In this document: one piece after another, positions 27,781-61,393 of the stretch | Position numbering within the stretch: the first letter of the stretch is position 1 | Layout of the letters: each line of letters begins with the position of its first letter | Assembly (NCBI GenBank): GCA_043806135.1 | Contig: JAZDHG010000016.1 | Coordinates: 42,110 to 106,109 of the forward strand | Direction of reading: 5' to 3' | Length of the DNA: 64,000 nucleotides | From: Candidatus Omnitrophota bacterium | GTDB lineage: Bacteria; Omnitrophota; Gorgyraeia; B26-G9 | Made by a program: the position numbers and the translations under genes | The notes under the pieces: model-generated | Database searches by the model: none | Told to the model about the DNA's origin: nothing | Seen by the model: only the letters and a program-made list of their open reading frames with translations

Positions 27781-27781
27781 A

Positions 27782-28276: not shown

Positions 28277-29316
28277 TTCGAGTCCTTATTGTTGATGACT
28301 CAGCTTTGATGCGCAGACGTATCAGCGATATTTTGAGTTTAGATAGCGAAATTGAGGTCCTGGATTGTGCAAAAACCGGGGCAGAAGCTATTAAAAAAGC
28401 CGTGAAAATGAAGCCGGATGTGATAACACTGGATCTGTCCATGCCGGATATCGATGGATTAACTGCGCTTACTTATATAATGACTGAGGTGCCGACACCG
28501 GTTGTTATTATCAGCGCGAACGCGTCTGCAGGCGGGGCCAACGCATTAAAGGCATTAGAGCTTGGAGCGGTAGAAATTGTGAATAAGCCAAGCGGCGAAA
28601 TATCGCTTGATATAGAAAACGTTGATCAGGAAATTGTACGTAAAGTAAAATCAGCCAGCAAGGTAGATGTTAAGAGAGTCAGGGCTGTTTTTAATATGTT
28701 TAAAAATATAGCGCCTGCCGTACAGCCCAAGGTGCCGGCTGGTTTAAATAAGATCGTAGCTATAGGGGCTTCTACCGGAGGTCCGAAAGCAATTAAAGAA
28801 ATACTTCCTTATTTTGCAGCGGACATTCCGGCGGCATTTTTGTTTGTGCAGCATATGCCGGCAGGGTTTACCCGTTCTATGGCGGAAAGATTAAACTGGC
28901 TGACAAAGATTGACGTAAAAGAAGCTGAAGAAGGTGATATAATCCAGGCCGGGCACGGATATATCGCACCGGGTGATTTTCATATGGTTGTGGAAATGCA
29001 TAATAATAATGCGGTTATACGTCTAAACACAGGTCCGAAAGTTAACAGAGTTCGCCCTTCAATATCTGTAATGATGGATTCTGTGGTTAAGATCTTTGGA
29101 GCAAAGACAATAGGCGTTTTACTTACAGGGATGGGGCAGGACGGCGTGTCGGGCATGAGAAATATTAAAAATGCGGGGGGATTAACATTGGCTGAGGATA
29201 AATCCAGCTGTGTTGTCTATGGGATGCCGCGGGTAGCGATAGAAGAAGGAATTGTAGATAAGGTTTTACCTATATCGCATATGGGCCTTGAAATAATGAA
29301 GCATATTAAGATATAA
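28273..29316 (+). CDS. cheB: Chemotaxis protein-glutamate methylesterase CheB (REC + methylesterase)
   Basis: 347 aa with an N-terminal REC domain and a CheB catalytic domain (GASTGGP, HMPAGFTRS). Translationally coupled to cheD. Confidence 0.88.
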   Translation: MIRVLIVDDSALMRRRISDILSLDSEIEVLDCAKTGAEAIKKAVKMKPDVITLDLSMPDIDGLTALTYIMTEVPTPVVIISANASAGGANALKALELGAVEIVNKPSGEISLDIENVDQEIVRKVKSASKVDVKRVRAVFNMFKNIAPAVQPKVPAGLNKIVAIGASTGGPKAIKEILPYFAADIPAAFLFVQHMPAGFTRSMAERLNWLTKIDVKEAEEGDIIQAGHGYIAPGDFHMVVEMHNNNAVIRLNTGPKVNRVRPSISVMMDSVVKIFGAKTIGVLLTGMGQDGVSGMRNIKNAGGLTLAEDKSSCVVYGMPRVAIEEGIVDKVLPISHMGLEIMKHIKI

Positions 29317-29329
29317 AAGGATTTAACAA

Positions 29330-41856: not shown

Positions 41857-42912
41857 ATGAATAATAAACAATATTTAGCAGGGCTTTACCCCGAAGAACT
41901 TCAAACCATAGTAGCGGGCTTAAACCATCCAGTATACAGGTCAAAGCAGATACAGGAGTGGATATTTAAGAAAAGTGTTCTGTCTTTTTCAGAGATGAAA
42001 AACCTTCCCGGAGAACTAAGGGAAAAGCTGGAGATTAAAAATTGTCCTGTCAGTCTTCATCAAAAATTAAAATTAACCTCTGCTGTTGATAAAACCTCTA
42101 AATATATTTTTATTACCGATGATGATAATTCTTTAGAAACTGTTTTGATACCGACAGCCAAGCGGGCTACTGTATGCGTATCTACTCAGGTAGGATGTGC
42201 CTTTGGGTGCTTATTTTGCGCAAGCGGCAGCGGAGGACTGGTGCGCGATCTTAGGGCAGATGAGATCGTTTCGCAGCTATTGCTTGTAAAAAAAGACAAC
42301 CCCGAACAGCCGGTCACTAATATTGTATTTATGGGCATGGGAGAGCCGCTGGCAAATTATGAGAATACTTTAAAGGCAATCAGGATTTTAAACCATCCGG
42401 ATTGTCTGGGAATAGCCGCAAGGAGGATAACCATTTCAACCTGCGGGTTGCCGGATGCGATATTGCAGCTTGCCAAAGAGAACATACAGTTTGAATTATC
42501 GATCTCGTTGCATGCCGCGGATAATGATACGCGAAACCGTCTTATGCCGATAAACAAGAAATTCCCCCTGAATATGCTGATGAAGGCGGCCAGGGAATAC
42601 ACTCAGGTGACAAACCGCATGATCACATTTGAATATGTGATAATGGACGGGATCAATGATTCAATAAAAGCAGCTTTAGATATCGCGCATCTATTCTTTG
42701 CACTTAAGTGTAAACTTAATATTATCCCGTTTAATCCTGCTGGGGCAATGGATTTTAAGCGCGTGAAAAAAACACAGCTTGAAGAATTCACGCATATGCT
42801 TCAAAGGCTTAAGATCAATTTCACTCTAAGGCGTTCGCGGGGTGCGGATATCCAAGGCGCCTGCGGACAATTGAGAGCAAACTTAGATAAGGGGTTAGGG
42901 GATAGCGTATAG
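41857..42912 (+). CDS. rlmN: 23S rRNA (adenine2503-C2)/tRNA methyltransferase RlmN (radical SAM)
   Basis: 351 aa with the radical SAM CxxxCxxC motif in VGCAFGCLFCASG, conserved RlmN N- and C-terminal motifs, and the catalytic Cys in GACGQL. Confidence 0.92.
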   Translation: MNNKQYLAGLYPEELQTIVAGLNHPVYRSKQIQEWIFKKSVLSFSEMKNLPGELREKLEIKNCPVSLHQKLKLTSAVDKTSKYIFITDDDNSLETVLIPTAKRATVCVSTQVGCAFGCLFCASGSGGLVRDLRADEIVSQLLLVKKDNPEQPVTNIVFMGMGEPLANYENTLKAIRILNHPDCLGIAARRITISTCGLPDAILQLAKENIQFELSISLHAADNDTRNRLMPINKKFPLNMLMKAAREYTQVTNRMITFEYVIMDGINDSIKAALDIAHLFFALKCKLNIIPFNPAGAMDFKRVKKTQLEEFTHMLQRLKINFTLRRSRGADIQGACGQLRANLDKGLGDSV

Positions 42913-42937: not shown

Positions 42938-43007
42938 ACATAAAGATCAGCTGCCCTGAGCCGCCACGATTAGCGGCGGGGAAGGGTTAGCTGAATTGCC
43001 TTGTTAT
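42938..43007 (+). repeat. attC-like imperfect palindromic repeat A
   Basis: ATAAAGATCAGCTGCCCTGAGCCGCCACGATTAGCGGCGGGGAAGGGTTAGCTGAATTGCCTTGTTAT. The stop codon of the downstream minus-strand gene overlaps the GTTAT box. Confidence 0.6.
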
Positions 43008-43282
43008 CTTTTTTCCATCATTCTGCCATTAACAAATTTATGAATAATGCTTGCTAATAAAGTTTGATAAGGAATGCCTTCTTCTATTGCTCTAATTTGG
43101 ATTCCATTGAGATCCTTTGAAGATATTCTAATGTTCACGCGTTTATCTTTTTTTAAGGTGTTTTTAGCATATTTTTGATGTTTTTTGATCTCTTGTTTTA
43201 AATCTTTTATAGATTCCCATTCCTTCCGGTTATAAGAATCTACTAAGTCTTGTTCATATTTGTCTAAATTATTTTTTTTCAT
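43004..43282 (-). CDS. brnA: BrnA antitoxin (RHH/CopG-like; type II TA)
   Basis: 92 aa with KDKRVNIRISSKDLNGIQIRAIEEGIPYQTLLASIIHKFVNGRM, a BrnA signature. Overlaps brnT by 4 nt. Confidence 0.8.
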   Translation of the reverse strand: MKKNNLDKYEQDLVDSYNRKEWESIKDLKQEIKKHQKYAKNTLKKDKRVNIRISSKDLNGIQIRAIEEGIPYQTLLASIIHKFVNGRMMEKR

Positions 43283-43563
43283 TTTTCACCTCGTATATAT
43301 TTTTTTGTAGCTTCACGGCTAGGGATAATAGTTTTTAGAAAATATGTGTCTCCTTTTTCTGCAACAAAAGGCACTAAATACGCATAATTATTTACATTAA
43401 CAATAAGAATGTTTTGATTGGGATATTTATTTTTATTCGGATGGTGTATTATATCAATAAGGTAACCTTTTTCTATGCAAGAAACTATTTCTTCAAAACA
43501 GATACCCCGATCATTTTTCAGCAGTTTATTTTTATCATTATCCCAATTATAGTATATATTCAT
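43279..43563 (-). CDS. brnT: BrnT toxin (DUF497 RNase; type II TA)
   Basis: 94 aa of DUF497-like sequence (NDRGICFEEIVSCIEKGYLIDII), paired with brnA. Confidence 0.75.
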   Translation of the reverse strand: MNIYYNWDNDKNKLLKNDRGICFEEIVSCIEKGYLIDIIHHPNKNKYPNQNILIVNVNNYAYLVPFVAEKGDTYFLKTIIPSREATKKYIRGEK

Positions 43564-43620
43564 AATTAAAATATATCACATTGTGTGCGCTTTGGCAACA
43601 AAATATTTTATATTAATATA

Positions 43621-43690
43621 ACATAAAAATCAGCTGCCCTGAGGCGGCGCCGAATGGCGGCGGGGAAGGGTTAGCTAATTGCTTTGTTAG
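43621..43690 (+). repeat. attC-like imperfect palindromic repeat B
   Basis: ACATAAAAATCAGCTGCCCTGAGGCGGCGCCGAATGGCGGCGGGGAAGGGTTAGCTAATTGCTTTGTTAG. Confidence 0.6.
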
Positions 43691-43693
43691 ATT

Positions 43694-43972
43694 TTACTGA
43701 TATCTATGTTTATCATACACTTCCTTGCGATGGCCTATTTTTAACACTATAATATCATTTTCTTCGATTTTATAGATAACTCTATAATCTCCCACGCGTA
43801 GTTTTCGGTATCCTTGCAGGCTTCTACGCAAGGGTTCACCATATTTGATAGGATCAGATAGCAGCCTATTTTCAATAGCTTTTCTAATTCTTGTTTTTAT
43901 GTTTTTTGGAATTCCTGAAATATCTTTTTTGATTTCAGGATGATAGGAAATCTGATAGTTCATTAGTTCCAA
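43694..43972 (-). CDS. relE: RelE/ParE-family toxin (type II TA)
   Basis: 92 aa with the RelE/StbE fold pattern (RKLRVGDYRVIYKIEENDIIVLKIGHRKEVY). Confidence 0.8.
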   Translation of the reverse strand: MELMNYQISYHPEIKKDISGIPKNIKTRIRKAIENRLLSDPIKYGEPLRRSLQGYRKLRVGDYRVIYKIEENDIIVLKIGHRKEVYDKHRYQ

Positions 43973-44190
43973 ATATCCTTGTGAGATATTTTTTTATTCT
44001 TTGAAAGAGAATTGTCTCTTTTTCGTGCCTGTTCTTGCCAATATAAATCTTCTCTAATTTCCAAAGCTTCTTTTATAAGATCTCTGGAGAAAAGAGATAG
44101 GGAAATTCCCTGGCTTTGAGCTGATTTATTAAGAATATTATATATTTCAGGGTCAAGTACGACATTTATTCTAGGATTTTTAGTTGGCAT
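43963..44190 (-). CDS. RHH (CopG/RelB-like) antitoxin partner of RelE
   Basis: 75 aa with an N-terminal ribbon-helix-helix segment (RINVVLDPEIYNILNKSAQSQGISLSLFSRDLIKEAL). Overlaps the relE start. Confidence 0.7.
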   Translation of the reverse strand: MPTKNPRINVVLDPEIYNILNKSAQSQGISLSLFSRDLIKEALEIREDLYWQEQARKRDNSLSKNKKISHKDIWN

Positions 44191-44310
44191 ATTTTTACCT
44201 CCACAATAAGTGTATCACATGTGATGAACCTTGTCAATGGGTAATTATCCCATTTTTGCATTTAATGGTAGGGGGGGTAAAAATAGTCGCTGTCCCTATT
44301 TTTCCCTAGA

Positions 44311-44660
44311 TAAACAATAAATTCCCCCTGAATATGCTGATGAAGGCGGTCAGGGAATATACTCAAGCGACAAACCGCATGATCACCTTTGAGTATGTGA
44401 TAATGGACGGGATTAATGATTCAATAAAAGCAGCTTTAGATATTGCGCATCTACTCTTTGCACTTAAGTGCAAACTTAATATTATCCCGTTTAATAATGT
44501 TGGGGCAATAGATTTTAAACGCGTGAAAAAAGCACAGCTTAAAGAATTCACGCATATGCTCCAAAGGCTTAAGATTAATTTTACTATAAGGCGTTCGCGG
44601 GGTGCGGATATTCAAGGCGCCTGCGGGCAGTTAAGGTTACATGTAGATAAGGGTAATTAG
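44311..44660 (+). pseudogene. rlmN: Duplicated 3' fragment of rlmN (last ~108 codons; ~90% nt identity to 42551-42890)
   Basis: Direct comparison with rlmN 42551-42890. The translation (MLMKAVREYTQATNRMITFEYVIMDGINDSIKAALDIAHLLFALKCKLNIIPFN...RRSRGADIQGACGQL) matches the RlmN C-terminus, but the radical SAM N-terminus is absent. Confidence 0.85.
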
Positions 44661-44746
44661 GCGTAAGCTGTAAGTTTTAAGCCTTAAGCAAAAACAGAAA
44701 GTATCCAATAAGTTTCTAAAAGTTTAGGTCTTATTACGTACAGCTT

Positions 44747-44820
44747 ATAACGTAAAAATCAGCTGCCCTAAGCCGACGCCAACTGACGGCGGGGAAGGGT
44801 TAGCTGGATTGTCTTGTTAG
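44747..44820 (+). repeat. attC-like imperfect palindromic repeat C
   Basis: ATAACGTAAAAATCAGCTGCCCTAAGCCGACGCCAACTGACGGCGGGGAAGGGTTAGCTGGATTGTCTTGTTAG. Confidence 0.6.
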
Positions 44821-44825
44821 AAATT

Positions 44826-45092
44826 CTATTCATAATGAGTCCACATGCGAATAATTTTTACTGTTTTATATTTTTTTAGAACTTGATAAACAATTCTATG
44901 TTGTATAGTTACTCTTCTTGAGTATGCGCCGGTTAAATCACCTACTAGCTTTTCGAATGGGGGGGGAGTCTTGAAAGGATTTCTCTTTATGATTTCCAGG
45001 ATAGCTTCGGCTTTAGGACACATACCACTGGCAGAAAGTTTCTTTGCGTCCTTCAAAGCTTGTTTTGTATAAACTATTTTCCAATTTACCAT
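44826..45092 (-). CDS. yoeB: YoeB/Txe-family toxin (type II TA)
   Basis: 88 aa with KIVYTKQALKDAKKL...LTGAYSRRVTIQHRIVYQV...IIRMWTHYE, a YoeB signature. Confidence 0.85.
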   Translation of the reverse strand: MVNWKIVYTKQALKDAKKLSASGMCPKAEAILEIIKRNPFKTPPPFEKLVGDLTGAYSRRVTIQHRIVYQVLKKYKTVKIIRMWTHYE

Positions 45093-45343
45093 GTTAATTT
45101 CTTATTGCATTCTTTAATTGGAGTTTTTAATCCCTTCCGAATTGATTCTCGCATTCCTGGAATAGAGATAAGATATAAGGTTTCCTGGATAGACCGCCAG
45201 TCATTTTCTGAAATTAAGACAGCATTATGTCTTTTTCCAGTAATCTGTATCGGTTCATGCGATAAGGCGGTCTTGTCTAATAATTTATATAATATGCTTC
45301 GTGCTTGACTTGCTGTTAAAGTAGTCACTGTAATCACCTCCAA
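45086..45343 (-). CDS. yefM: YefM/Phd-family antitoxin
   Basis: 85 aa of Phd/YefM-type N-terminus (LTASQARSILYKLLDKTALSHEPIQITGKRHNAVLISENDWRSIQETLYL). Overlaps yoeB by 7 nt. Confidence 0.85.
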   Translation of the reverse strand: MEVITVTTLTASQARSILYKLLDKTALSHEPIQITGKRHNAVLISENDWRSIQETLYLISIPGMRESIRKGLKTPIKECNKKLTW

Positions 45344-45414
45344 TTAAAGCGTACCACATCACGTACGTTTTGTCAATAATTGATTTTTATATTATTTATT
45401 GCTAACATTTGAGC

Positions 45415-45478
45415 TCAGGCAGAGGAAACCGACGCCATTTGGCAGCGGTTTGCGATTGCCTGGAGCGATTTGCTAGGA
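45415..45478 (+). repeat. Degenerate attC-like repeat D'
   Basis: The core ACCGACGCCATTTGGCAGCGG resembles GCCGACGCCAACTGACGGCGG of repeat C. The outer arms have diverged. Confidence 0.4.
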
Positions 45479-45479
45479 G

Positions 45480-45830
45480 CTATTTATTTTCTTCCTGAAT
45501 AATTTTTTCGATTTCTTTATGGAGAGAGGGGATTTTGTTAATAACTACATCCCACACAATATCATAATCTATGCCGAAGTAATCATGTATTAATATATCC
45601 CGCATGCCAGCCATAGCGCGCCACTCTATATAAGGATGTTTTTGTTTTAAGTTGTCAGGGGTATTTTTTGTAGCCTCTCCGATAATTTCTATACTACGGA
45701 CAAACGCTCGTTGGAGTGTTTCGTGCTGCATAAAATTTTCTTTAGCCAATCCTTTTGTTTGACTTAAAATATATTTTGTTTCATCCAATATATGGTGAAG
45801 ATATTCATGCCCGGGAAATGACATATTCAA
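45480..45830 (-). CDS. hepT: HepT-like toxin (DUF86, RNase; HepT/MntA type II/VII TA)
   Basis: 116 aa with the Rx4HxY motif in MRDILIHDY and a DUF86 helical pattern. Confidence 0.8.
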   Translation of the reverse strand: MNMSFPGHEYLHHILDETKYILSQTKGLAKENFMQHETLQRAFVRSIEIIGEATKNTPDNLKQKHPYIEWRAMAGMRDILIHDYFGIDYDIVWDVVINKIPSLHKEIEKIIQEENK

Positions 45831-46113
45831 CCTCTCTCAATATATTAGGTTTAATATAAGGGCTTAATGATTCGGAAGTTACTAATTCTATGCGATGTTT
45901 TAATAATGTTTCAAGCAAAAAGGAAAGGTGAATGAAATTATCAAAGTTTTTTTTATCAGGGTAGAATTCAACAAGTAAATCAATATCGCTTTTAGGGTTT
46001 TGTTTTCCCTTAACGAACGAGCCAAAAAGACCAAGTTGTTTCACGCCGAAAGATATAATATCATTTTGGTTATTTTTTATAAGATTTAAAATTTCTTCTT
46101 TATCTTTAATCAT
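45805..46113 (-). CDS. mntA: MntA-like minimal nucleotidyltransferase antitoxin
   Basis: GLFGSFVKG....SDIDLLV nucleotidyltransferase motif. I take the ATG at 46113 as the start; the ORF track extends to a TTG at 46149. Overlaps hepT. Confidence 0.75.
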   Translation of the reverse strand: MIKDKEEILNLIKNNQNDIISFGVKQLGLFGSFVKGKQNPKSDIDLLVEFYPDKKNFDNFIHLSFLLETLLKHRIELVTSESLSPYIKPNILREVEYVISRA

Positions 46114-46277
46114 ATTACTTATTATAACTATTCTTATTGGAGTTTTCAATAGATAGTATTTTTTTTGAATGAACCCAAACTAAAATTAAAGAGATTATCC
46201 AAAGTATCCCAGTAGCAAAGCCCCCCACCAATAATACTAAATAAAGCAGAAAGAAGCTATTCATTCATAATTTTTCA

Positions 46278-50229: not shown

Positions 50230-50913
50230 ATGGGACGGATTATTTTCATCGCAGTATTAATCCTTTTGTTTTCCTCTATAAATGCAGGAGCGATTCCATC
50301 TGAAGGTAATTTTTTGCCTGATTTACACAAAACAATCTGGGGTTTTCAATTTAACAATATCTTCCTGCGTGACTTTAATAAAGTCGAAGGCAAGGGGATG
50401 ACAAAGCAGTATTTTCTTAAAGCGAGTTACGGCTTAACGGAAAGGTTTTTTTTAGACGGAAAAATCGGCCAGGGCAGTATTAGGTTTAAGCGTAATGACA
50501 ATATTGATCTTGATTTTTCAAGCAGTTTTGCCGGGGGGTACGGATTCCGCTATCTTATTTTTCAGGATGACCGGAGCGGGTGGAAATCAATAATGGGATT
50601 TCAGCATATTAGCTGCCATCCGTTTAAAGACACGGTAGCAGGTATTAATTATCGCGTTATATGGGATGAGTGGCAGGGGACGTGGCTGTTTATAAAGGAA
50701 TGGGAAAAGACGGCTTTGCATTTTGGCCCGCAGTACAGTGCAGTGCAGCTAAAATACAAGGTTGATAATTTTAGGCGCCGTTTAAAGGCAGAGGACTCCT
50801 GGGGGTTACTGTTCGGCGGCGAATATCGCTTTACGAAGAAAGCAAGCATAAGTGCGGAGCTCAGGGTGCTTGATGAGTGGGCAATTAACACGGGGATTAG
50901 TTATAAATTCTAA
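50230..50913 (+). CDS. Small outer-membrane beta-barrel protein
   Basis: Signal peptide (ILLFSSINAGA), alternating-hydrophobic beta-strand pattern, and a C-terminal ISYKF. Confidence 0.5.
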   Translation: MGRIIFIAVLILLFSSINAGAIPSEGNFLPDLHKTIWGFQFNNIFLRDFNKVEGKGMTKQYFLKASYGLTERFFLDGKIGQGSIRFKRNDNIDLDFSSSFAGGYGFRYLIFQDDRSGWKSIMGFQHISCHPFKDTVAGINYRVIWDEWQGTWLFIKEWEKTALHFGPQYSAVQLKYKVDNFRRRLKAEDSWGLLFGGEYRFTKKASISAELRVLDEWAINTGISYKF

Positions 50914-51197: not shown

Positions 51198-51851
51198 ATG
51201 CAGTTTAAAAAATTACGTTTATGGGCAACATATCCGTTTGCTTTAGTATATATATTATTCGCGTATAAACAGGGCATTGAGTTCATTCCCGGCATATGGT
51301 TTATTTTGTCCGGATTGTTAGTGCGTTGCTGGGCAGCCGGATATATAAAAAAGATAAAGGTACTGACTACTGCCGGGCCATACTCTTTTGTGCGCAATCC
51401 GCTGTATGTAGGGAATTTTCTCATGGGCCTGGGTTTCTGTCTGTTTGTACGGGATTTAATGCTTAGCCTTCTATATATAATTTTATTTTTCTTCTTTTAT
51501 ATAGGAACCATGAAAAAAGAAGAAGCAGTGCTTACGGATCTTTTTAAGGAGGAATATATTAATTACAAGAATAAGGTTCCTGCCTTTATCCCCCGTATTT
51601 TGCCTTATGCCTCAAAACAGCCGATGCGCTACAGCTTAAAACAGGCGTATTATAATGGTGAGCTGATCAGAGTAGTTGTAACGGGTATTTTGCTTTCTCT
51701 ATCTTATTTTGGGGTTGATTTTCTTAAAGCAGAGTCTTTGGACAAGGGTGAGCTGTTTAGGGCAGGACTGCTTATTGCGGTACAGGGCATAATACTGCTT
51801 GTAATCATACAGCATAGAAAAGAGTTTGTTAAAAAACAGGACAAAAAATAA
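51198..51851 (+). CDS. Isoprenylcysteine carboxyl methyltransferase (ICMT/PEMT) family membrane methyltransferase
   Basis: GPYSFVRNPLYVGNFLMGLG plus a C-terminal EE...L motif typical of the ICMT/phospholipid methyltransferase family. Confidence 0.7.
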   Translation: MQFKKLRLWATYPFALVYILFAYKQGIEFIPGIWFILSGLLVRCWAAGYIKKIKVLTTAGPYSFVRNPLYVGNFLMGLGFCLFVRDLMLSLLYIILFFFFYIGTMKKEEAVLTDLFKEEYINYKNKVPAFIPRILPYASKQPMRYSLKQAYYNGELIRVVVTGILLSLSYFGVDFLKAESLDKGELFRAGLLIAVQGIILLVIIQHRKEFVKKQDKK

Positions 51852-51900: not shown

Positions 51901-53586
51901 ATGCAGAAAACCTGGAATATACGAAAAATTGACGCAAAAAAACAGCAATCATTTGCCAAAGAGCTGGGGATATCTTTGATACTTGCACAGATTCTTTTGA
52001 ATCGCGGAATTCAGACAAAGGAGCAGGCGCGCAGTTATCTTTATGATGATATCAGCAAGTGTTTTGATCCTTTTTTGTTAAAAGGTATGAAAAAAGCGGT
52101 TAAGCGTACTCAAGAAGCGCTTGCTGGTAAAGAGAAAATTTTCATTTACGGAGACTATGATGTTGACGGCCTGAGCAGCACTGCTTTGCTTTATTTTGTT
52201 CTAAAAGACCTTGGGGCGGATGTCGCGTATTATATACCGCATAGAGTTGAAGAGGGTTACAGCCTGAATAAACAGGCGTGCATGAATTTAAAAAAACAAA
52301 AAGCAAAACTTATAATAACTGTTGATTGCGGGATAAGCAGTTTTAAAGAAGTAAAATATCTTAATTCTGCGGGCATAGACATCATCATAACCGATCATCA
52401 TCGTATAGTTGAAGGTAAAATACCTTCGGCGTATGCGGTAATTAATCCGATGCAAAAAGGATGTGATTATCCCTATAAGGATCTTGCCGGTGTAGGCATT
52501 GCCTATAAATTTGCTCAGGCGCTCACTCATGGAGTGATGGATGTAAACAGCCATCTTGATCTTGTGGCCCTGGGAACGATTAGTGATGTTGCGCCTTTAA
52601 CAGGTGAAAACAGGATTCTGGTCAAGCAGGGGCTCCAGGTACTGAGCAATACAAATAAGACAGGATTAAAAGCACTAATGGAGATCACCGGTATAAAAAA
52701 AAAGAAAATTTCAACCCAGCACGTAGGATTTATACTTGGACCGCGCATTAATGCCAGCGGACGTATGGGTTCAGCCGAAAAAGCGCTTGAGCTTTTGCTG
52801 AGTGATGACGATGAACATGCCTTGCGGCTTGCTAAAGACCTGGAAAATTATAACAGGCAGCGGCAAAAAGAGGAAGCTAAGACATTAAAGCAGGCTATTT
52901 CGATGATGCAAAGTGAAATAAATTTTAAACATCACCGCTCTGTAGTGTTACATAACGATGAGTGGCATCCCGGGGTTATCGGTATTGTGGCCTCGCGTAT
53001 TGCCGAAAAATATTACCGCCCGACGATATTGATTTCCACAAAAGATAAGATGGGCAAAGGATCAGGGCGTTCCATCAGGAACTTCCATCTTTTTGACACT
53101 CTTTCAAAATGCGGCCATTTATTGGAAAAATTCGGCGGGCATGAAAAAGCTGCGGGTATAAGTATTTTAAAAAACAACCTGCTTGATTTTAAAAAGTTCT
53201 TTAATGAAATGGTGCATAAGAGCCTATCCTGCGAGGAACTTGTTCCGGTTATTGACGTGGATATGGAAGTATCTCTTGACGTTTTATCTGAAAAGCTGAT
53301 AAATGAGCTTGAACTCTGCGCTCCTTTTGGCATAGGCAATCCGCGTCCTGTATTTGCTTCGCGTGATTTAAGGGCAAAAGACAGACCCAGGACTTTAAGG
53401 GGCAATGGTTTTAAAATATGGCTTACGGACGGCAAAGTGACCTGCGAGGCATTGGGCAGTAAGTTTAGCGATATTGATATTTCGGATATCAGCAGCGGGT
53501 TTTCCGTTGTATACTCTCCCTCTATAAATGACTGGCAGGGCATTAACACTATCCAGTTAAAACTCAAGGATCTGCAATTTTCCTGA
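51901..53586 (+). CDS. recJ: Single-stranded-DNA-specific exonuclease RecJ
   Basis: 561 aa with DHH motifs (IYGDYDVDGLSS, ITDHH) and a DHHA1 domain (GGHEKAAGI). Confidence 0.88.
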   Translation: MQKTWNIRKIDAKKQQSFAKELGISLILAQILLNRGIQTKEQARSYLYDDISKCFDPFLLKGMKKAVKRTQEALAGKEKIFIYGDYDVDGLSSTALLYFVLKDLGADVAYYIPHRVEEGYSLNKQACMNLKKQKAKLIITVDCGISSFKEVKYLNSAGIDIIITDHHRIVEGKIPSAYAVINPMQKGCDYPYKDLAGVGIAYKFAQALTHGVMDVNSHLDLVALGTISDVAPLTGENRILVKQGLQVLSNTNKTGLKALMEITGIKKKKISTQHVGFILGPRINASGRMGSAEKALELLLSDDDEHALRLAKDLENYNRQRQKEEAKTLKQAISMMQSEINFKHHRSVVLHNDEWHPGVIGIVASRIAEKYYRPTILISTKDKMGKGSGRSIRNFHLFDTLSKCGHLLEKFGGHEKAAGISILKNNLLDFKKFFNEMVHKSLSCEELVPVIDVDMEVSLDVLSEKLINELELCAPFGIGNPRPVFASRDLRAKDRPRTLRGNGFKIWLTDGKVTCEALGSKFSDIDISDISSGFSVVYSPSINDWQGINTIQLKLKDLQFS

Positions 53587-53822: not shown

Positions 53823-54920
53823 ATGGCCAAAAACAGGGGAAAAAATCTTTTTTTACTTCTGATGGTCCTATTTATAATCGCAGGGTCTTTTAATTGCAGC
53901 CGGGTTCTTTACGCGCAGGAAAATACCCATTGTATGTTACAAACTGCAAATCTTTCTCCTGCGCTTAAACTCCCTGAACAGGTATTTCAAGAGAGCTGGA
54001 GGGATATCATCGTTGACTTTTATATGCGCAGCAGTATATTGAGCGAATATGAATATCGGGTGTTAAAACTGAATGTCTTATTTAATGTAAAAATAAATCC
54101 GGCTGATATTGAACGAAGTTTATTGAATTCTATCAGCAAGGAAGATATTCCATACTATTTTTACGAAGCCACGCCGGATAAGGATTTAATAAGAAAAACA
54201 AGACTGAAAATCCGCAATAAATTCGAAATGATCCTTATTGAATATGGATGGGAGCTTGATATAAGCATGCTTAGATACCTTGAAGCCTTAATGAAAAAGA
54301 TCGCGGCGAAACAGGATAAAGATATTTCCGCATATCAAATGCAGATAACAAAAGTGTTGAACACTCTTACAGACGAAGAGATGCTGCTTTTTAAAGCCCA
54401 GCCGCGCTCTTTACAAGAGCATGCATTAAAAAAGAAGGTTATGTATCTTGTTAACGGAGAGATTGTTAAAGAAGGCGTTTTGATCGATTCAAAGGTAGGG
54501 GATGCCGTGGCTGATGCGGTTGAAGCAAAAAAGCAGAATCTGCTTTCTCAGGTGCGGTTTTACGTTAATATTCATAAGGATGAATTAAAACAGCAGCTGT
54601 ACAGTGAATTGCTTAGTGAAATAAGTTATTATTCTGCTCGCCATTCACGCTTAAGTCTCCAAAGGCAAAAGGTTCGCGCAGAAGCATTTGGAATATTCAT
54701 GGAATGGCTTAAAAGCAAAGAGAGTACGCTATCCTTTGATAAAGTGACGCTTTATAAAGAGGGGGAATTATGGGAATCGCGCTATTGGTTTATGCTTGAT
54801 GAGATCATGCGGGAATTAATTGAGGCAGGTTCTCTTGTAAACATTATTCCTGAATTGCCAAGTAGTAATCCGCCTCATCTACAAATACAAAACAGCCTAA
54901 TTATTAGCCAGGCAATATAA
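53823..54920 (+). CDS. Hypothetical exported, helical protein (first of three genes sharing the N-terminal LSPAL-FQ motif)
   Basis: N-terminal hydrophobic segment followed by LSPALKLPEQVFQESW. No known domain recognised. Confidence 0.6.
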   Translation: MAKNRGKNLFLLLMVLFIIAGSFNCSRVLYAQENTHCMLQTANLSPALKLPEQVFQESWRDIIVDFYMRSSILSEYEYRVLKLNVLFNVKINPADIERSLLNSISKEDIPYYFYEATPDKDLIRKTRLKIRNKFEMILIEYGWELDISMLRYLEALMKKIAAKQDKDISAYQMQITKVLNTLTDEEMLLFKAQPRSLQEHALKKKVMYLVNGEIVKEGVLIDSKVGDAVADAVEAKKQNLLSQVRFYVNIHKDELKQQLYSELLSEISYYSARHSRLSLQRQKVRAEAFGIFMEWLKSKESTLSFDKVTLYKEGELWESRYWFMLDEIMRELIEAGSLVNIIPELPSSNPPHLQIQNSLIISQAI

Positions 54921-55094: not shown

Positions 55095-56999
55095 GTGAAT
55101 AAATTTACGGTAATGAGAATTATAATCTTTATTCTTATTCAGGCATTTTTGTTTTCTACCAGTGCCTTTGCCCTGGGAATCTCTGTGTCATCTTTCTGTG
55201 ATAAAAACTGTCTGTCACCTGCAGTACAGCTTAAAACAAATAATTTTCAGAAGTTTTTTTTAGAACGCAGCTTGCAGCAGAATACTGCGGATAGTTTTCA
55301 GGAATACATAAAGCAGAAAATTATTGCAAAAGGAGGCAGAATAAGCTTTGCGGAATTCATGGATGATGCCTTGTATTCAGAGCACGGATTTTTCCCCAAG
55401 ATTGTAAATATTGGATACAACAATGTGTTCTCTTCTGATCCTGTCAAGGCTAAAGAAAAAAAGCATTTTAATACCTATGCAGAATCGCTGCCTTTTGCGC
55501 ATTCTCTGGCAATACAATTGATCGAGATGTGGGAATTAATGGGTACGCCGGATAAGTTTAGTATTGTTGAGATGGGAGCAGGCACAGGTGTTTTGGCAAA
55601 GAATATTATTAGTTATATACAAGAGCACAAACCGCAGCTTTATAAAAGCTTAGATTATGTAATAGTGGATATAAGCGAGAGGCTTATTGAGATACAGAAA
55701 GAGACTATAAAAAAGAAATTTAAGGATACGAAGGGTGTCCCTATCCGCTGGGAAAGTGGGGATGCTTTTCATCTATCAAAATTGGAGGATATTGAAGGAG
55801 TATTTCTTTCCAATGAAATGCCGGATAATTTTGCTGTTCACAGAATAAAAAAAGTTAACGGCAGATTCCTGGAAGTATATACTGCATTTCATGAAGGAAA
55901 TTTTGTGGATAAGCTTGGTCCGCTGTCAACTCCTGAGCTTAAAGCATATGTTGAGAATATTGGAGTTGAAATACAAGAAGGCCGTGAAATTCCTGTTAAT
56001 CTGAATTTGCGTGTTTGGCAGGAAAATATGGCTAAGGCACTGAAAAGAGGTTTTGTGATCACTATAGATTACGGCGGAAAGATCGAGGAAATAAGTGAAG
56101 AGCCTTATGCTGTGTGGAATAAGGAAACTAATGACATTGAAGACAGATCAGAAAAAATGAAATATATATATGATAACAGCGGAAACTGTGATATCACAGC
56201 CAATGTTAATTTCTTTGATACTGCTAAATGGGGTAAATCAGCTGGATTAAATGTGCATGGATATACGCTGCAAAGAGATTTTCTCGAGAACTTGGACTTT
56301 CATAAGATCCTGGATAATTTACAAAGACAGGATAAGCCGGAGCCGGGGCTGAAATCCCTTTCTAATGACATTGTCACTAATTTTCACTTTAAAGTGCTGG
56401 TTCAAAGTAAGGGGCTTGATGCGGATATTCCGCTTGCTGGCTTTAAGCAAATGGATGGATTTTTCATGAAGTATGAACAGAAAATAAGTTTAATATTGCC
56501 GATAGGCCCCAAGGAAAGCAAGTTTATCGTAGTAACTAATGATTTTAACCTGCAGAGTGAGCATGTAAAAAGAGGACAGGAAGGACTTAAAAAATATGCA
56601 GACTCTATTCGCGATTACAGGACTAAAACAGAAATAATCGAGGGTACAAATAATATGAGAGAGGGTAAGTATGTGCTTGATTTAAAACGCAAGGATTTTA
56701 GCGAGGGGTTTTCCGATTTAAGGATCTATAATGATAAAGGCGAGCTCATTTTTAATGCGAAAAACATTTCCGATTATGAAAAAGAAGCGTTTGTAATGAC
56801 AAAAAAGGCTTTTGATCAACAATACCGGACACGCTTTGATCTAAGCGATAAGCATATTACAAATGCTCCGGAGTTGTTTTATGTGCATCCCGACGGTTCT
56901 CTCCTGATTGTTCCACCGATTTTTCTGCCTGAAGGCGTTGTAGACAAGAAAGAATCCATTGATCAAAATCCAAACTTTATTCTGGAGAAATCGATTTAA
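55095..56999 (+). CDS. MidA/DUF185-family class I SAM-dependent methyltransferase-like protein with N-terminal signal segment and ~190-aa C-terminal extension
   Basis: ISFAEFMDDALYSEHGFF and SIVEMGAGTGVLAKNII match the MidA (NDUFAF7-like) family. The N-terminus has a signal-like segment followed by LSPAVQLKTNNFQKFF. Confidence 0.65.
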   Translation: MNKFTVMRIIIFILIQAFLFSTSAFALGISVSSFCDKNCLSPAVQLKTNNFQKFFLERSLQQNTADSFQEYIKQKIIAKGGRISFAEFMDDALYSEHGFFPKIVNIGYNNVFSSDPVKAKEKKHFNTYAESLPFAHSLAIQLIEMWELMGTPDKFSIVEMGAGTGVLAKNIISYIQEHKPQLYKSLDYVIVDISERLIEIQKETIKKKFKDTKGVPIRWESGDAFHLSKLEDIEGVFLSNEMPDNFAVHRIKKVNGRFLEVYTAFHEGNFVDKLGPLSTPELKAYVENIGVEIQEGREIPVNLNLRVWQENMAKALKRGFVITIDYGGKIEEISEEPYAVWNKETNDIEDRSEKMKYIYDNSGNCDITANVNFFDTAKWGKSAGLNVHGYTLQRDFLENLDFHKILDNLQRQDKPEPGLKSLSNDIVTNFHFKVLVQSKGLDADIPLAGFKQMDGFFMKYEQKISLILPIGPKESKFIVVTNDFNLQSEHVKRGQEGLKKYADSIRDYRTKTEIIEGTNNMREGKYVLDLKRKDFSEGFSDLRIYNDKGELIFNAKNISDYEKEAFVMTKKAFDQQYRTRFDLSDKHITNAPELFYVHPDGSLLIVPPIFLPEGVVDKKESIDQNPNFILEKSI

Positions 57000-57013: not shown

Positions 57014-59119
57014 ATGAAAAGTAAAATTAAAAAAATAACAGTATATATATTAATTGAATTATTTATTCTGATTGAAGTTGCTTTGGCAGGAACAGGAAAA
57101 ATTATGCCTGATGCCGGAAACAGCATGCTTTCTCCTGCTTTGCAGATACCGGGTCAGATTTTTCAGAACATCTTTCTTAATAGCGACCTTGCTAAAGCGG
57201 TTAATTCTGTGCGGGTTGAGATAGGAGATAAAACTGAAAAAGACAACAAATTTGTCTGGGAAATAGAAGTTTATTTTCAAAATGACCAGCCGGGAGTACT
57301 GAATAATATCCTGCACAAGATATCTCCCGGGGTAGAGATTATCTGGTTTGAAATGTCCAGAAGAGATGGTGTAAGTTCAATAAAGATAGCGATTTCAACA
57401 GAAAAAAAAGAGCTGCTGGATACAACAGTCAAAGGTTTTAAGGAAATCAAAGATAAAAAAATTTATGTTCAAGAAAGTAGACACAGAAGTCTGGTTCTTA
57501 ATATCTCCCTGATCCAAGCGGAGAAAAGCTTGATTTTGATAACAGATTACCTGGCTCTACAAGATATTAATGTGTCAAAGTTTTTGACGCCAACCGTGAC
57601 CAGGACAGGCTATTCTAATTTTGTTTTTGAACTGGAAGTACCGGAAAAGACAAATATCAGATCTGTAGAAGCCGACCTTAGCTTTATAACCAAAGGTGTA
57701 GATGGTCATATGCAGCTGAGCAAGGGACAGCTGATAAATAAAATATTCCAGGAATCACTGCTGAAGAAAATAAATACACCTTTATCTAAAAAAGAAGAAC
57801 ATCAATTGCTGCGGGCCATTAAGATAGTAGGCAGGAGACATATAAGCGAATCAAGAAAGGACAGAAAAACCCCATTTATCATGCATCAGGTAGAAGCAGT
57901 TCAGATACTGGTAAATGAAATAAAGATTTTATCCCCGGAGGTTGTTTCCTTTATTGCCAAAAGTTTACAGGTTAATAAGGACGAGGAGGACGAGATTAAG
58001 GCCATAATACTTTTAGCTGCTCTTTTGCATGATGCTGTCGAAGATGGGGATATTTCATTAAAAAAGATTAAGAAGAAATTTGGGGTAAGGGTGGCGGATA
58101 TGGTTAAACTGCTGAGCAAGGAGGATATCCATAGGAGTAAACAAGGGGAGGCGGTTTATCTTGGTAACATGATAGAAAAAAAAGATATTATCGGGCTTAT
58201 CACACAGATCGTCAAGATTGCCGACCGCATTAATAATTTGCGGACTTTAGTAGATAATGATCGAGAATTTCAAAGAAAAATATTTTTTTCTACTTTAAAC
58301 ACTTTTATACCTGTATTTATAGATAAGATTGACCTTAATGGGATTGAGAATAAGCCGTTGCGGGAAGTTTTTAAGCGGGCGCTGCAGTTATTTGAGAGAC
58401 AGGTGTATCTTACCGGGCGGGAGCTTGGGCTTATTAATAAGCAGGGAAAGATAAACAAAGAGGGATACCGTATTTATGAGCAGGAAGAAAAACAGCGCCA
58501 GAAGAAGATGATCCTTGAAATAGGCAATTCGAAAAAAGTGCTGGCGTATGGAGTAGATGAATCCAAGGTCGGGTTACAGGGATTAGCGGATATTTTAATC
58601 CAAGGTTATGTCAAAGCACGGAAAACAAAGTCTGGTTATGTAATCTTTGCCGGTCCGTTGAGGCCGCAGAGAGTGGATGAACAGTATTTCGATTATATCG
58701 CGGAATCATCCGGAGATTACGGCCCCTACTATGTTATCTTGGATCCGGCAATAGAAAATATCAGGATTGAGCATAAAATAGGAGAAAAAAAAATCATAAT
58801 GCCTGGATTTTATAAAGCTCGGAAAGTAGGTATTGGTACATGGGGCTTACCCTATAAATATCATGGAGCTTATCTTGTGCCCACTGAAAAGGACAGACAG
58901 TTTTTAATTAAAAAAATTGAACAGGCGCTAAAACAATCCAGGATAAATATGGACTATGCCAAGCAGATCACTCAGAAAATCATTACTTATTTTGAGTTTA
59001 TACAGGCAAAAGAGGAAGTATGCCTGCTTAAGGTTGAACAAGGTGATACAGAGTCTGAAATGATAAGAAAAAAAGTGCTGAATTTATCCTGTAAAATATT
59101 TGTTGAACAAGCAATTTGA
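57014..59119 (+). CDS. Multidomain protein with N-terminal membrane/signal segment, ACT-like domains and a RelA/SpoT-type HD (ppGpp-hydrolase-like) domain
   Basis: Motifs LAALLHDAVEDG and VKIADRINNLRTL match the SpoT/Mesh1 HD-domain signature. No synthetase domain is present. The N-terminus carries the LSPALQIPGQIFQNIF motif. Confidence 0.65.
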   Translation: MKSKIKKITVYILIELFILIEVALAGTGKIMPDAGNSMLSPALQIPGQIFQNIFLNSDLAKAVNSVRVEIGDKTEKDNKFVWEIEVYFQNDQPGVLNNILHKISPGVEIIWFEMSRRDGVSSIKIAISTEKKELLDTTVKGFKEIKDKKIYVQESRHRSLVLNISLIQAEKSLILITDYLALQDINVSKFLTPTVTRTGYSNFVFELEVPEKTNIRSVEADLSFITKGVDGHMQLSKGQLINKIFQESLLKKINTPLSKKEEHQLLRAIKIVGRRHISESRKDRKTPFIMHQVEAVQILVNEIKILSPEVVSFIAKSLQVNKDEEDEIKAIILLAALLHDAVEDGDISLKKIKKKFGVRVADMVKLLSKEDIHRSKQGEAVYLGNMIEKKDIIGLITQIVKIADRINNLRTLVDNDREFQRKIFFSTLNTFIPVFIDKIDLNGIENKPLREVFKRALQLFERQVYLTGRELGLINKQGKINKEGYRIYEQEEKQRQKKMILEIGNSKKVLAYGVDESKVGLQGLADILIQGYVKARKTKSGYVIFAGPLRPQRVDEQYFDYIAESSGDYGPYYVILDPAIENIRIEHKIGEKKIIMPGFYKARKVGIGTWGLPYKYHGAYLVPTEKDRQFLIKKIEQALKQSRINMDYAKQITQKIITYFEFIQAKEEVCLLKVEQGDTESEMIRKKVLNLSCKIFVEQAI

Positions 59120-59349: not shown

Positions 59350-59658
59350 ATGCTTATTCTTGCATATATTATTGAGGGGCTTGCAACCGTTCTTGGGCTG
59401 GTATTGACAATAATGTATTGGTTGCTTTTGATCCGGGTGCTTATCAGCTGGGTTAGCCCGGACCCTTATAACCCGATTGTTCAATTTCTACACAGAGCAA
59501 CGGATCCGGTGCTTGAACCGCTGCATTATTTATTAATGCCATTGACCATGCAGATTAGAGTAGACCTGTCTCCTTTGCTGGCTTTTTTTATTATTGTATT
59601 TTTACAAAGGTCTTTGGTGGGAGTCTTGTTCCATGTCGCTTATTTGCTTAAACAATAA
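59350..59658 (+). CDS. yggT: YggT family membrane protein
   Basis: 102 aa with LLLIRVLISWVSPDPYNPIVQFLHRATDPVLEPL. Confidence 0.75.
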   Translation: MLILAYIIEGLATVLGLVLTIMYWLLLIRVLISWVSPDPYNPIVQFLHRATDPVLEPLHYLLMPLTMQIRVDLSPLLAFFIIVFLQRSLVGVLFHVAYLLKQ

Positions 59659-59695: not shown

Positions 59696-61393
59696 GTGAA
59701 CAAAAACACAGTCAATAAGCTTTTAGATATCAGTATTGTAATTACCGCTGCTGTCTCATTTATCATTTTGCTTGTGCAGTGGGAAATAATGCCTGTTATT
59801 AAAACGCTTACTACTTCTCTGCTGGATATAATCGATATTATTGTTTTAGCTGTATTCTTTATATGTGTTTTGGTACGTTTTATAGCTAACCCGAATAAAA
59901 AAGAATATTTCAAGGAATATTGGATAGACCTGATCATCATTCTGCCTTTGATCCAGATATTTCAAGGTGTGCACAATACGGGTCTTGCGATTGTTTTAAG
60001 AGAAGCAATAAGATTGCTCAGGTTTTTATCCCGGATAAAAGTGCCAGAGCGGTTGATCAGTTTGCTAGGTATAAAACCGGCACAGCTTTTGATCGTAACA
60101 TTTTTGATGACGATCTTAATCGGGACGTTTTTGCTTACTCTTCCTGTTTCAACACAAAGCAGCCAGGGAATGAATTTCGTCGATGCCTTGTTTACGGCGA
60201 CATCGGCAACCTGTGTGACCGGCCTGATTGTGCAGGATACAGGCAGCTTTTTTTCAATTTTCGGACAGCTTGTGATCTTGCTGCTTATCCAGGTCGGGGC
60301 ATTGGGAATAATGACTTTTTCCGTAACCTTATTCCTGGCTGCGGGCAAACAGATGTCTAATAGAGAAGCTATTGCCATGCAGGATGTTCTTAATCAGGAC
60401 AGTATTGCGGGAATTATGAATCTGATTGCTTTTATAGCAAAAATGACCATATGCATAGAGGCTTTGGGAGCGGTTTTTCTTTTTGCCGGGTTTATACCTT
60501 ATATCAGTGACCCCTGGCAAAGGGCATATATATCTTTGTTCCATTCTGTTTCTGCTTTTTGTAATGCAGGATTTTCATTATTCCCAGACAGTATTATGAA
60601 GTATACAAATGACGGGGTTATCAACCTGTCTATTGCTTTTTTGATTATTCTCGGCGGGTTGGGGTTTATCGTCGTAAAAGATCTCTGGGATATGTTTGTT
60701 TTAGGTTTGCGACCTAAGAGTTTAGGTTTAAGACTGCATACTAAGATCGTTTTATCCATGACCGCTATTTTACTTGTTGCCGGTACAATTGTTATATTTT
60801 TTGCGGAAAATAAGGTTAATTTTACGGGTATGGCTTTCAAACACAAAATTTTAATAAGCTTTTTTCAATCTGTTTCAGCCAGGACAGCGGGGTTTAACAG
60901 TGTGGATATTGGCGGCATGACCAATGGGAGTATATTCAGCATTATTGTACTGATGTTTATCGGGGCCTCGGCCGGTTCTACAGGAGGAGGTATTAAGACT
61001 ACAACTTTTTGGGTATTGCTAAAGTCATTTAGCAGCAGCCTGCAGAACAAGGAAGATATAAACACATTTAAGAAAAAAATCCCTGAACAGATCGTTGGCA
61101 AGGCAATAGCCATATTTATATTATCCTTGGGTTTTGTTAGCTTGTTTATGTATCTTTTGTCTGTTTTTGAACCGCTGCCTTTCAAGGCTTTGCTCTTTGA
61201 GGTTGTATCTGCATTCGGTACTGTAGGGCTTTCTACAGGGATTACGGCACAATTGCATAATGCCGGTAAATTACTGATAACCTGCTTAATGTTTTTGGGA
61301 AGGCTGGGGCCTTTAACAGTCGTTCTGGCTTTTTCAGGGTATAAAAGAAAAATAAATTATACCTATGCACAAGAAAAAATTATGGTCGGATAA
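59696..61393 (+). CDS. TrkH/KtrB-family K+ transporter with an N-terminal ~130-aa four-helix extension resembling a voltage-sensor (S1-S4-like) module
   Basis: The core shows TrkH/KtrB pore-loop signatures (TATSATCVTGL, GASAGSTGGGIKTTT, SAFGTVGLSTG). The N-terminal extension contains EYWIDLIIILP (S3-like) and LREAIRLLRFLSRIK (Arg at every third or fourth position, S4-like). Confidence 0.75.
   Translation: MNKNTVNKLLDISIVITAAVSFIILLVQWEIMPVIKTLTTSLLDIIDIIVLAVFFICVLVRFIANPNKKEYFKEYWIDLIIILPLIQIFQGVHNTGLAIVLREAIRLLRFLSRIKVPERLISLLGIKPAQLLIVTFLMTILIGTFLLTLPVSTQSSQGMNFVDALFTATSATCVTGLIVQDTGSFFSIFGQLVILLLIQVGALGIMTFSVTLFLAAGKQMSNREAIAMQDVLNQDSIAGIMNLIAFIAKMTICIEALGAVFLFAGFIPYISDPWQRAYISLFHSVSAFCNAGFSLFPDSIMKYTNDGVINLSIAFLIILGGLGFIVVKDLWDMFVLGLRPKSLGLRLHTKIVLSMTAILLVAGTIVIFFAENKVNFTGMAFKHKILISFFQSVSARTAGFNSVDIGGMTNGSIFSIIVLMFIGASAGSTGGGIKTTTFWVLLKSFSSSLQNKEDINTFKKKIPEQIVGKAIAIFILSLGFVSLFMYLLSVFEPLPFKALLFEVVSAFGTVGLSTGITAQLHNAGKLLITCLMFLGRLGPLTVVLAFSGYKRKINYTYAQEKIMVG

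Follow-up and report, generated by a model that had tools for sequence, protein, structure and literature searches.

Alarmone hydrolysis has so far been treated as cytoplasmic housekeeping, carried out by long Rel/SpoT enzymes or by small alarmone hydrolases (SAHs), which are small single-domain proteins (Atkinson 2011, PMC3153485). Sec-exported alarmone synthetases (EAS) were shown only in 2025: export of SaEAS from Streptomyces was demonstrated experimentally and no exported hydrolase is described in that work (Ahmad et al. 2025, PMC12691689), and an exported hydrolase counterpart is not otherwise known to have been described. Here we analyse a 64,000-nucleotide stretch of contig JAZDHG010000016.1 from a Candidatus Omnitrophota bacterium (hereafter the window), in which the open reading frame at 57014-59119 on the plus strand encodes a 701-aa protein with an HD-type hydrolase domain. 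The gene, which an earlier note based on the letters and translations alone had singled out, starts with ATG, and its product is 100% identical to the database protein P0001, which bears the NCBI name 'MAG: HD domain-containing protein [Candidatus Omnitrophota bacterium]' and is encoded on a 124-kb contig. The protein is a hydrolase-only member of the RelA/SpoT homologue (RSH) family with a new architecture, consisting of a leader, an LSPALQ motif, two ACT-like domains, the HD domain, a further domain of ~190 aa and a short conserved tail. The EAS are its nearest conceptual precedent, since they too are RSH-superfamily enzymes behind an N-terminal Sec-type signal, an arrangement that by implication puts alarmone reactions outside the cytoplasm of the producing cell, but they are synthetases, whereas the window protein is a hydrolase with predicted export. 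The gene and the parts of its product are arranged as follows, with the evidence for each in brackets:

57014..59119, plus strand: gene for the 701-aa leader/ACT-ACT/HD_4/new-domain protein (open reading frame with ATG start; P0001)
57014..57091, plus strand: Sec-type leader, aa 1-26, MKSKIKK followed by the hydrophobic stretch ITVYILIELFILIEVALA, with the end pattern A-L-A (sole hydrophobic segment)
57128..57178, plus strand: post-leader motif LSPALQIPGQIFQNIFL, aa 39-55 (family alignment and upstream proteins)
57212..57442, plus strand: ACT-like domain 1, aa 67-143 (sub-threshold ACT_4 match, AlphaFold2 model, Foldseek)
57482..57724, plus strand: ACT-like domain 2, aa 157-237, in beta-alpha-beta-beta-alpha-beta order (AlphaFold2 model, Foldseek)
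57731..58423, plus strand: RSH-type HD hydrolase domain, aa 240-470 (Pfam, NCBIfam, alignment, AlphaFold2, Foldseek)
58466..59038, plus strand: new C-terminal domain, aa ~485-675 (profile search, domain model)
59093..59116, plus strand: C-terminal tail ...KIFVEQAI-COOH (conserved in orthologues)

The canonical (p)ppGpp-hydrolase signatures that had been read from the translation could be located at residues 337-345 (LLHDAVEDG) and 401-412 (KIADRINNLRTL). Pfam HD_4 (PF13328) matched aa 309-433 at E 1e-9, its score of 38.7 bits exceeding the gathering cut-off (27.2), while the NCBIfam spoT_relA model TIGR00691 gave a local match only, over aa 331-434. Pfam and NCBIfam scans detected neither a RelA_SpoT synthetase domain (PF04607) nor a TGS domain in the 701-aa protein, which bears out the earlier statement that no synthetase domain accompanies the hydrolase. 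Alignment to human MESH1 and to Rel placed R281-K282-D283...H291 on the block 'RRKD...YINH', H339-D340-x-x-E343-D344 on 'LHDTVED' and K401-x-x-D404-R405-x-x-N408 on 'KLADKLYN', so that the metal ligands and catalytic residues are all present: H291, H339, D340 and D404 align with the Mn2+ ligands of MESH1 and Rel, and the catalytic dyad E343-D344, the substrate-binding Arg motif R281-K282-D283 and R405 with N408 (ADRxxN) are all in place. Each of these residues is invariant across the family alignment of 11 members, and since they are kept despite an overall identity of only 29-63%, their conservation points to selection on catalysis.

A profile built from this family, when compared with solved structures, scored highest against Bacillus Rel (5e-20), Rel_Seq (5e-19), human MESH1 (6e-17) and Thermus Rel (2e-16), followed by SpoT (6e-15), RelH (9e-10) and PaSAH (1e-6). 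The family alignment also served as input for an AlphaFold2 model, which was confident over aa 64-500, with a predicted local distance difference test score (pLDDT) above 85. When this model was compared with the PDB by Foldseek, the best matches were to Mesh1, with template modelling (TM) scores on the target of 0.72-0.74, and to Thermus Rel, full-length SpoT, RelH and PaSAH; the probability was 1.00 for 3nr1, 5vxa, 6s2t, 7qpr, 7qoc and 6yvc, with TM scores on the target of up to 0.74. Both checks that the earlier note had proposed for its hydrolase assignment thus came out in its favour: the alignment found every metal-binding residue retained and invariant in the 11 members, and the predicted structure matched Mesh1, Rel and SpoT and not a generic HD phosphohydrolase. 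Judged by each of the sequence and predicted-fold features that we compared, the protein belongs to the RSH hydrolase family, and we consider it likely that its HD domain is a functional RSH-type hydrolase.

Within this family the protein departs from both described hydrolase types. Like Mesh1 and the SAHs RelH and PaSAH, it combines the HD_4 fold with the lack of a synthetase and with all Mn2+ ligands and the catalytic R/ED/N residues, but it differs from them in its length of 701 aa, its leader, its two ACT-like domains, the ~24 residues inserted between H291 and the H339-D340 pair, its Rel-like helix and the extra C-terminal domain. An SAH by definition it is not, being 701 aa long with five further elements. 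With the long RSH enzymes Rel and SpoT it shares the highest profile scores, the helix after the NxxRT motif and the pairing of a hydrolase with ACT-type regulation; in contrast to them, it has no SYNTH, TGS or other C-terminal domains of that type, its ACT-like domains are N-terminal and in tandem, and it starts with a Sec-type leader. Identity as a long RSH was rejected because neither SYNTH (PF04607) nor TGS follows the HD domain. The helix after the last motif, 'EFQRKIFFSTLNTFIPVF', aligns with 'EKQRRISNETLEIFAPLA' of Rel, and because this helix and the top profile scores both lead to Rel, the HD domain looks, on sequence grounds, more like a long-RSH (Rel) hydrolase from which the synthetase has been lost than like a classical SAH. 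Of the likeness to a small-alarmone-hydrolase module suggested earlier, the hydrolase-only HD domain therefore stands, whereas by profile scores and post-motif helix the closer affinity is to the Rel-type hydrolase.

The region between leader and HD domain had been described as ACT-like from the translation. Sequence support for this was weak (Pfam ACT_4, 20.4 bits over aa 78-147, under the 27-bit cut-off), and precomputed Pfam ACT matches exist in four homologues (P0002, P0003, P0009 and P0010); in the model, aa 67-143 and aa 157-237 each form an ACT-like alpha/beta unit, with pLDDT mostly above 85, and Foldseek pairs the region with the tandem-ACT proteins 2nyi, 1u8s and SerB2, in agreement with the earlier description. 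In some Rel enzymes, binding of an amino acid to the ACT domain stimulates hydrolysis.

The hydrophobic leader pointed out in the earlier note proved to be the single hydrophobic segment of the protein (aa 5-31) and is kept in all homologues. Its n-, h- and c-regions, its length and its shape are like those of the signal peptides of the TonB-dependent receptor and outer membrane protein (OMP) genes in the same window. Features expected of a Sec signal peptide with a signal peptidase I site are present and conserved, namely a basic n-region, an h-region of 12-18 residues and small residues at positions -3 and -1, which read A-L-A, S-W-A, C-W-A or A-F-A in the different leaders; however, the h-region carries a conserved Q, N or E. 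About 12 residues past the leader lies the motif (C/T/N)LSPA(L/V)Q, LSPALQ in the HD protein, of which L39 and P41 are invariant in the HD-protein family. A misannotated start is ruled out by conservation of the leader in 19 proteins from seven loci, and Tat (twin-arginine), lipoprotein (lipobox L-x-x-C) and type IV pilin-like (G|F-T-L-I-E) leaders were rejected as their motifs are missing from the leader alignments.

Leader, motif and tail are shared with the two genes directly upstream. The tail consensus phi-x-[EGQ]-[QKRN]-[AS]-I-COOH is found in three window proteins; in its simpler form, [KRQN][AGS]I-COOH, the tail ends 3 of the 148 window open reading frames of at least 80 aa, against 0.6 expected, and these three genes are adjacent. 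In the window the N-terminal motif and the tail always occur together, and they co-occur only in these three genes. Across the 19 tagged proteins from 7 loci that we used for all counts of flanks, motifs and tails, the motif is present in 18 and the standard tail likewise in 18, the single exception for both being a fusion protein that ends in ...ERAS. The flank N-terminal to the hydrophobic segment has a net charge of +1 to +4 in 18 of the 19 (0 in the one other, which probably has a truncated start call), and the C-terminal flank is neutral or negative in 17. The leader, as far as can be told from these alignments, is a tag common to the operon partners and not peculiar to the HD protein. 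A profile of the leader region (60-80 aa), which is too short for a database of that size, returned no match at E <= 10 among 5.8 billion proteins; against 224 N-termini it gave only signal-peptide-like partial matches in a few proteins that carry the C-terminal domain. LSPAL-like motifs inside giant proteins were absent from the 141,705 residues searched.

The genes that carry or border the tags in the window are the following:

51901..53586, plus strand: recJ, upstream boundary of the tagged set (Pfam DHH, DHHA1 and RecJ_OB; same place in L001, L005 and L093)
53823..54920, plus strand: partner of unknown family, 365 aa, with the same leader, LSPALK and the tail ...SQAI
55095..56999, plus strand: Methyltransf_28 (COG1565/NDUFAF7-like) partner, 634 aa, with the same leader, LSPAVQ and the tail ...EKSI
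59350..59658, plus strand: yggT, downstream boundary (Pfam YGGT; same place in all six syntenic loci)

The HD gene is the last of a conserved set of 3-4 genes that lies between recJ and yggT in Omnitrophota. The stop codon of the methyltransferase gene is 14 nt upstream of it, and the methyltransferase N-terminus is similar to that of the HD protein (E 5e-5). This partner matches Pfam PF02636 (E 1.1e-52) and the COG1565/NDUFAF7 structures 4f3n, 5ztz and 1zkd, as expected of the NDUFAF7/MidA-type enzymes, but unlike these it has the leader, the tail and a C-terminal extension of ~190 aa, and in one genome it is fused to ACT-ACT-HD. On the methyltransferase, PF04607 scored 19 bits, short of the cut-off of 27; this match overlaps with the Rossmann fold of the enzyme and was taken as chance. 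For the 365-aa partner, no Pfam, NCBIfam or PDB match was obtained and a word-based search retrieved one relative only; its orthologues in syntenic loci have 377-730 aa and the closest relative, at 60% identity, has 614 aa, so that the window copy appears from these comparisons to have lost internal sequence with both tags intact.

The tagged set recurs between recJ and yggT-trkH-hemB in six further loci of other Omnitrophota-like genomes (L001/L002, L005, L090/L093, L091 and L092), in which the gene order varies and the tags are constant. In three loci the set is preceded by a large protein, and all three of these end in the same kind of tail:

L093, 3039-9734: 2231 aa, PPDK_N/PEP-utilizer domains, tail ...GKAI
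L091, 1-4696: at least 1653 aa, TIM and ROK domains, tail ...QRSI
L092, 1-4868: at least 1735 aa, PPDK_N domain, tail ...GRGI

In the one genome examined for this, the complete 2231-aa PPDK protein also starts with the leader followed by MLSPALSV. One genome encodes ACT-ACT-HD and Methyltransf_28 as a single protein of 1070 aa (P0011) with the leader kept, and this fusion is a direct sign of functional coupling between the two. In a set of 185,579 species-representative genomes, the ACT-HD architecture was encoded at three loci and nowhere else. A 5229-nt contig from a metagenome-assembled genome labelled Planctomycetales (L008, 1-5229) consists of one frame of at least 1742 aa, open at both ends, with a ROK domain followed by ACT-ACT-HD_4, whose catalytic motifs are intact; as this frame represents a giant-protein fragment, the module also exists inside giant proteins. 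The giant proteins of Omnitrophota (West-Roberts 2023 preprint; 10.64898/2026.06.07.730766) resemble the tagged set in that methyltransferase, HD, PPDK and ROK domains lie behind signal peptides or transmembrane segments, and they share with it ACT-ACT-HD, in the L008 fragment, and the C-terminal domain, in proteins of 2292 and 5745 aa. They differ in that the enzymes described here are separate, normal-sized operon proteins, each with its own leader, LSPAL motif and tail. Taken together, this is a small set of co-tagged enzymes, conserved and previously uncharacterised.

Just upstream of recJ, at window positions 50230-50913 and 51198-51851, we also noted genes for an OMP-beta-barrel-like protein and for a membrane methyltransferase of the ICMT/PEMT family, and both are found at this place in every syntenic locus (L001, L005 and L093). 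Eukaryotic ICMT enzymes methylate C-terminal carboxylates of proteins, and by analogy a link between this methyltransferase and the conserved C-terminal tails is conceivable.

The region behind the HD domain had been called uncharacterised, and our scans agree in that it has no match to a Pfam family or, by sequence, to the PDB. An exhaustive HMMER search of 1.84 billion representatives with a profile of residues 471-701 (E <= 0.001) matched 117 representative proteins, so that the domain recurs in ~110 other proteins, giant Omnitrophota proteins included. Beyond the orthologues, the domain forms the C-terminus of proteins of 200-600 aa and has an internal position in others of 1,400-7,200 aa; two large carriers, of 2292 and 5745 aa, are named Candidatus Omnitrophota at NCBI, and in the former it is accompanied by methyltransferase, UPF0489, HPr and PEP-utilizer domains. 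No Pfam family recurred when the 58 aligned members were all scanned at E <= 10. The C-terminus is thus a well-folded domain family of ~190 aa that is absent from Pfam: the model built on the 58-sequence alignment reached a pLDDT of 90.9, and the family is characterised by the motifs AHG..KGG..NIMLEG, G.HGPYYVIL, H.AYLVP and K..TY.EF. Two conserved positions that are His in most members are Tyr in the window protein (LAYGV and DYGP), and the first of them (AHG) is kept as His in close homologues of the window protein. Foldseek found weak matches to yeast Tpt1 (7yw4; E 0.023, probability 0.96, TM score 0.47) and to DarT (probability up to 0.25), both of which belong to the ADP-ribosyltransferase superfamily; nothing significant was found in a viral structure library. 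Assignment to that superfamily was not upheld by profile comparison, in which hhalign against E. coli KptA gave Probab=0.21 on a scale of 0-100, i.e. 0.2%, and the ADP-ribosyltransferase-like fold suggested by the model is a lead only.

As a separate observation, four proteins with the C-terminal domain (P0141, P0225, P0228 and P0165) have leaders of similar flavour (KKIT..IL..LFLF.Q...A), which in P0228 is followed by SALAPPL, and several giant proteins have other N-terminal motifs after the leader, e.g. '..IP.ELG.I...Y' and 'LSP.(F/Y)NP.ILKG.K'. These may be parts of a broader code for N-terminal targeting that is specific to Omnitrophota. In the literature searched, we found neither the leader/LSPAL/tail tag nor the C-terminal domain described, an absence of evidence that holds for that literature only.

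Considering these data together, we propose that the HD protein is an active, ACT-gated 3'-pyrophosphohydrolase that is co-targeted with its partner enzymes to an extracytoplasmic destination, and we put the probability of this reading, which draws on alignments and predicted structures, at about 0.5. In this proposal the HD domain would remove the 3'-pyrophosphate from (p)ppGpp-type nucleotides in a Mn2+-dependent manner, and the tandem ACT domains would gate hydrolysis by sensing a small ligand, for instance an amino acid. With its leader the protein would enter the Sec pathway and cross the inner membrane, and the LSPAL motif and the tail would co-route or co-assemble the partner enzymes. 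Since the leader is shaped like an export signal, the -3/-1 residues are small and the flanking charges are asymmetric, most of the protein is predicted to end up beyond the cytoplasm, with or without cleavage of the leader, and we put the odds for an extracytoplasmic protein at even or slightly better. The export-type leader, together with tags shared with the neighbouring enzymes, suggests that the protein probably acts outside the cytoplasm of the cell that makes it. The tagged enzymes need substrates of a cytoplasmic type (alarmones, SAM, and ATP/PEP for those of PPDK type), which favours action in, or on material of, another cell; the enzymes would accordingly be destined for a partner or prey, to act inside that cell or on the nucleotides that it releases, and removal of the alarmone there would block the victim's stringent response. 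Action on another cell agrees with the host-dependent lifestyle proposed for Omnitrophota (PMC10066038), and a signal peptide or transmembrane helices are reported for 94% of the long multi-enzyme Omnitrophota proteins, whose modules include methyltransferase and HD domains (bioRxiv 10.64898/2026.06.07.730766). Membership of a known anti-phage defence system was rejected, as none of the three tagged proteins matched a PADLOC defence model.

Several points weigh against the proposal. The export call rests on inspection and on the positive-inside rule, and a cleaved signal peptide would not usually carry the conserved polar Q, N or E seen in the hydrophobic core, residues that may point to a retained, oligomerising anchor. 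As a rule, domains of the ACT, HD_4 and SAM-dependent methyltransferase types belong to the cytoplasm, and their substrates are not known from a periplasm; within the window, no secretion-system genes flank the locus. As for the substrate, specificity cannot be read from the sequence, and Mesh1-type enzymes also dephosphorylate NADPH. Structures of MESH1 with NADPH (5vxa) and with PAPS (9chy) were among our Foldseek matches, and a Mesh1-type enzyme has been reported as a CoA 3'-phosphatase (PMC13221220).

The alternative that survives best, although we regard it as rather unlikely, is a membrane-tethered housekeeping hydrolase. Here the leader would be an uncleaved anchor or assembly helix, the catalytic domains would face the cell's own cytoplasm and reset its (p)ppGpp in the manner of SpoT upon amino-acid sufficiency sensed by ACT, and the tags would hold the partners in a membrane complex. 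ACT, HD_4, Methyltransf_28 and PPDK all use cytoplasmic metabolites, the polar Q/N/E residues in the core suggest helix-helix association over a disposable signal peptide, and the locus lies among housekeeping genes at a fixed chromosomal position; moreover, 46% of the long Omnitrophota proteins have been interpreted as membrane-anchored with their domains in the cytoplasm (bioRxiv 10.64898/2026.06.07.730766). The topology predicted from the charges is the reverse, however, in most of the 19 tagged proteins, as the positive N-flank (in 18) and the neutral or negative C-flank (in 17) call for N-in/C-out. Known N-out/C-in anchors such as ZipA have a basic cluster after the helix, and no such cluster is present here, while the conserved small -3/-1 residues resemble a signal-peptidase site.

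With regard to the substrate, it is improbable but conceivable that the HD domain acts on a non-alarmone, removing a 2'-/3'-phosphate or pyrophosphate from NADPH, CoA, PAPS/PAP or pyrophosphorylated tRNA ends, in which case it and the C-terminal domain would jointly serve to scavenge or modify nucleotides. The Mesh1 structures and the CoA activity mentioned above would fit, given that Mesh1 is among the closest structural matches; the weak fold matches of the C-terminal domain are to NAD+-using enzymes that modify nucleic acids (Tpt1 and DarT), and an extracytoplasmic location would favour salvage chemistry. Yet the full set of Rel-type motifs is kept, including R-K-D and E-D, which are used in ppGpp hydrolysis, the top sequence scores go to bona fide (p)ppGpp hydrolases, and the ADP-ribosyltransferase-like reading of the C-terminal domain is unsupported by profile comparison. 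Least probable is a regulatory or scaffold protein with little catalysis, in which the HD domain would sense alarmones, the C-terminal domain would be inactive and the partners would be organised: the Tyr residues at the two His positions of the C-terminal domain would suit it, but the invariance of the HD catalytic residues among divergent homologues argues for selection on catalysis, and the first His is retained in close homologues.

Returning to the proposed exported hydrolase, its most specific form, which we consider unlikely, is that of a secreted effector kit of host-dependent Omnitrophota, in which the HD protein would erase the (p)ppGpp of the prey or host and so keep the victim metabolically active during exploitation. 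The members of such a kit would be the protein of unknown family, the Methyltransf_28 protein, the ACT-ACT-HD protein with its new domain and, in the one genome examined, the large PPDK protein; in two further loci the same tail ends a large protein of the PPDK_N or TIM/ROK kind.

Other features of the window were recorded alongside. A low-GC island (0.34-0.37) occupies 43004-46149 (mostly minus strand) and 44334-44660 (plus strand) and contains four two-gene cassettes that by size, overlap and sequence resemble toxin-antitoxin pairs, with families assigned by eye:

43004-43282/43279-43563: first cassette pair
43694-43972/43963-44190: second cassette pair
44826-45092/45086-45343: third cassette pair
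45480-45830/45805-46149: fourth cassette pair

The island adjoins a 108-aa near-duplicate of the C-terminal end of an RlmN-like radical-SAM gene (41857-42912), and this position suggests that an insertion duplicated the 3' end of the RlmN-like gene. A chemotaxis cluster at 24398-31357 encodes an MCP, CheB and CheA (with P2 and CheW domains), and lipopolysaccharide and outer membrane genes (KdtA and a TonB-dependent receptor) lie on the same contig, which together indicate an organism that is diderm and probably motile or chemotactic. The TrkH-family protein encoded at 59696-61393 has an extra N-terminal Ion_trans match (voltage-gated-channel-like; aa 8-143, E 5e-8), an unusual fusion for TrkH. 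Promoter and terminator scans of the window gave counts equal to the shuffled expectation, and no RNA family was found in it with Rfam.

For the biology of alarmones, the window protein provides a tangible candidate that can be cloned: its active site is intact, and it has ACT-like sensor domains and a domain from an unannotated family of ~110 members. If the effector-kit reading, unlikely as we consider it, is true, it would be the first exported alarmone hydrolase, and its leader, LSPAL motif and ...[QKR][AS]I tail, shared with the partners, would constitute a previously undescribed two-ended sorting or assembly signal. For the Omnitrophota, the puzzle of why enzymes of cytoplasmic type are found behind signal peptides is reduced from intractable giant proteins to a three-gene operon with short, testable tags.

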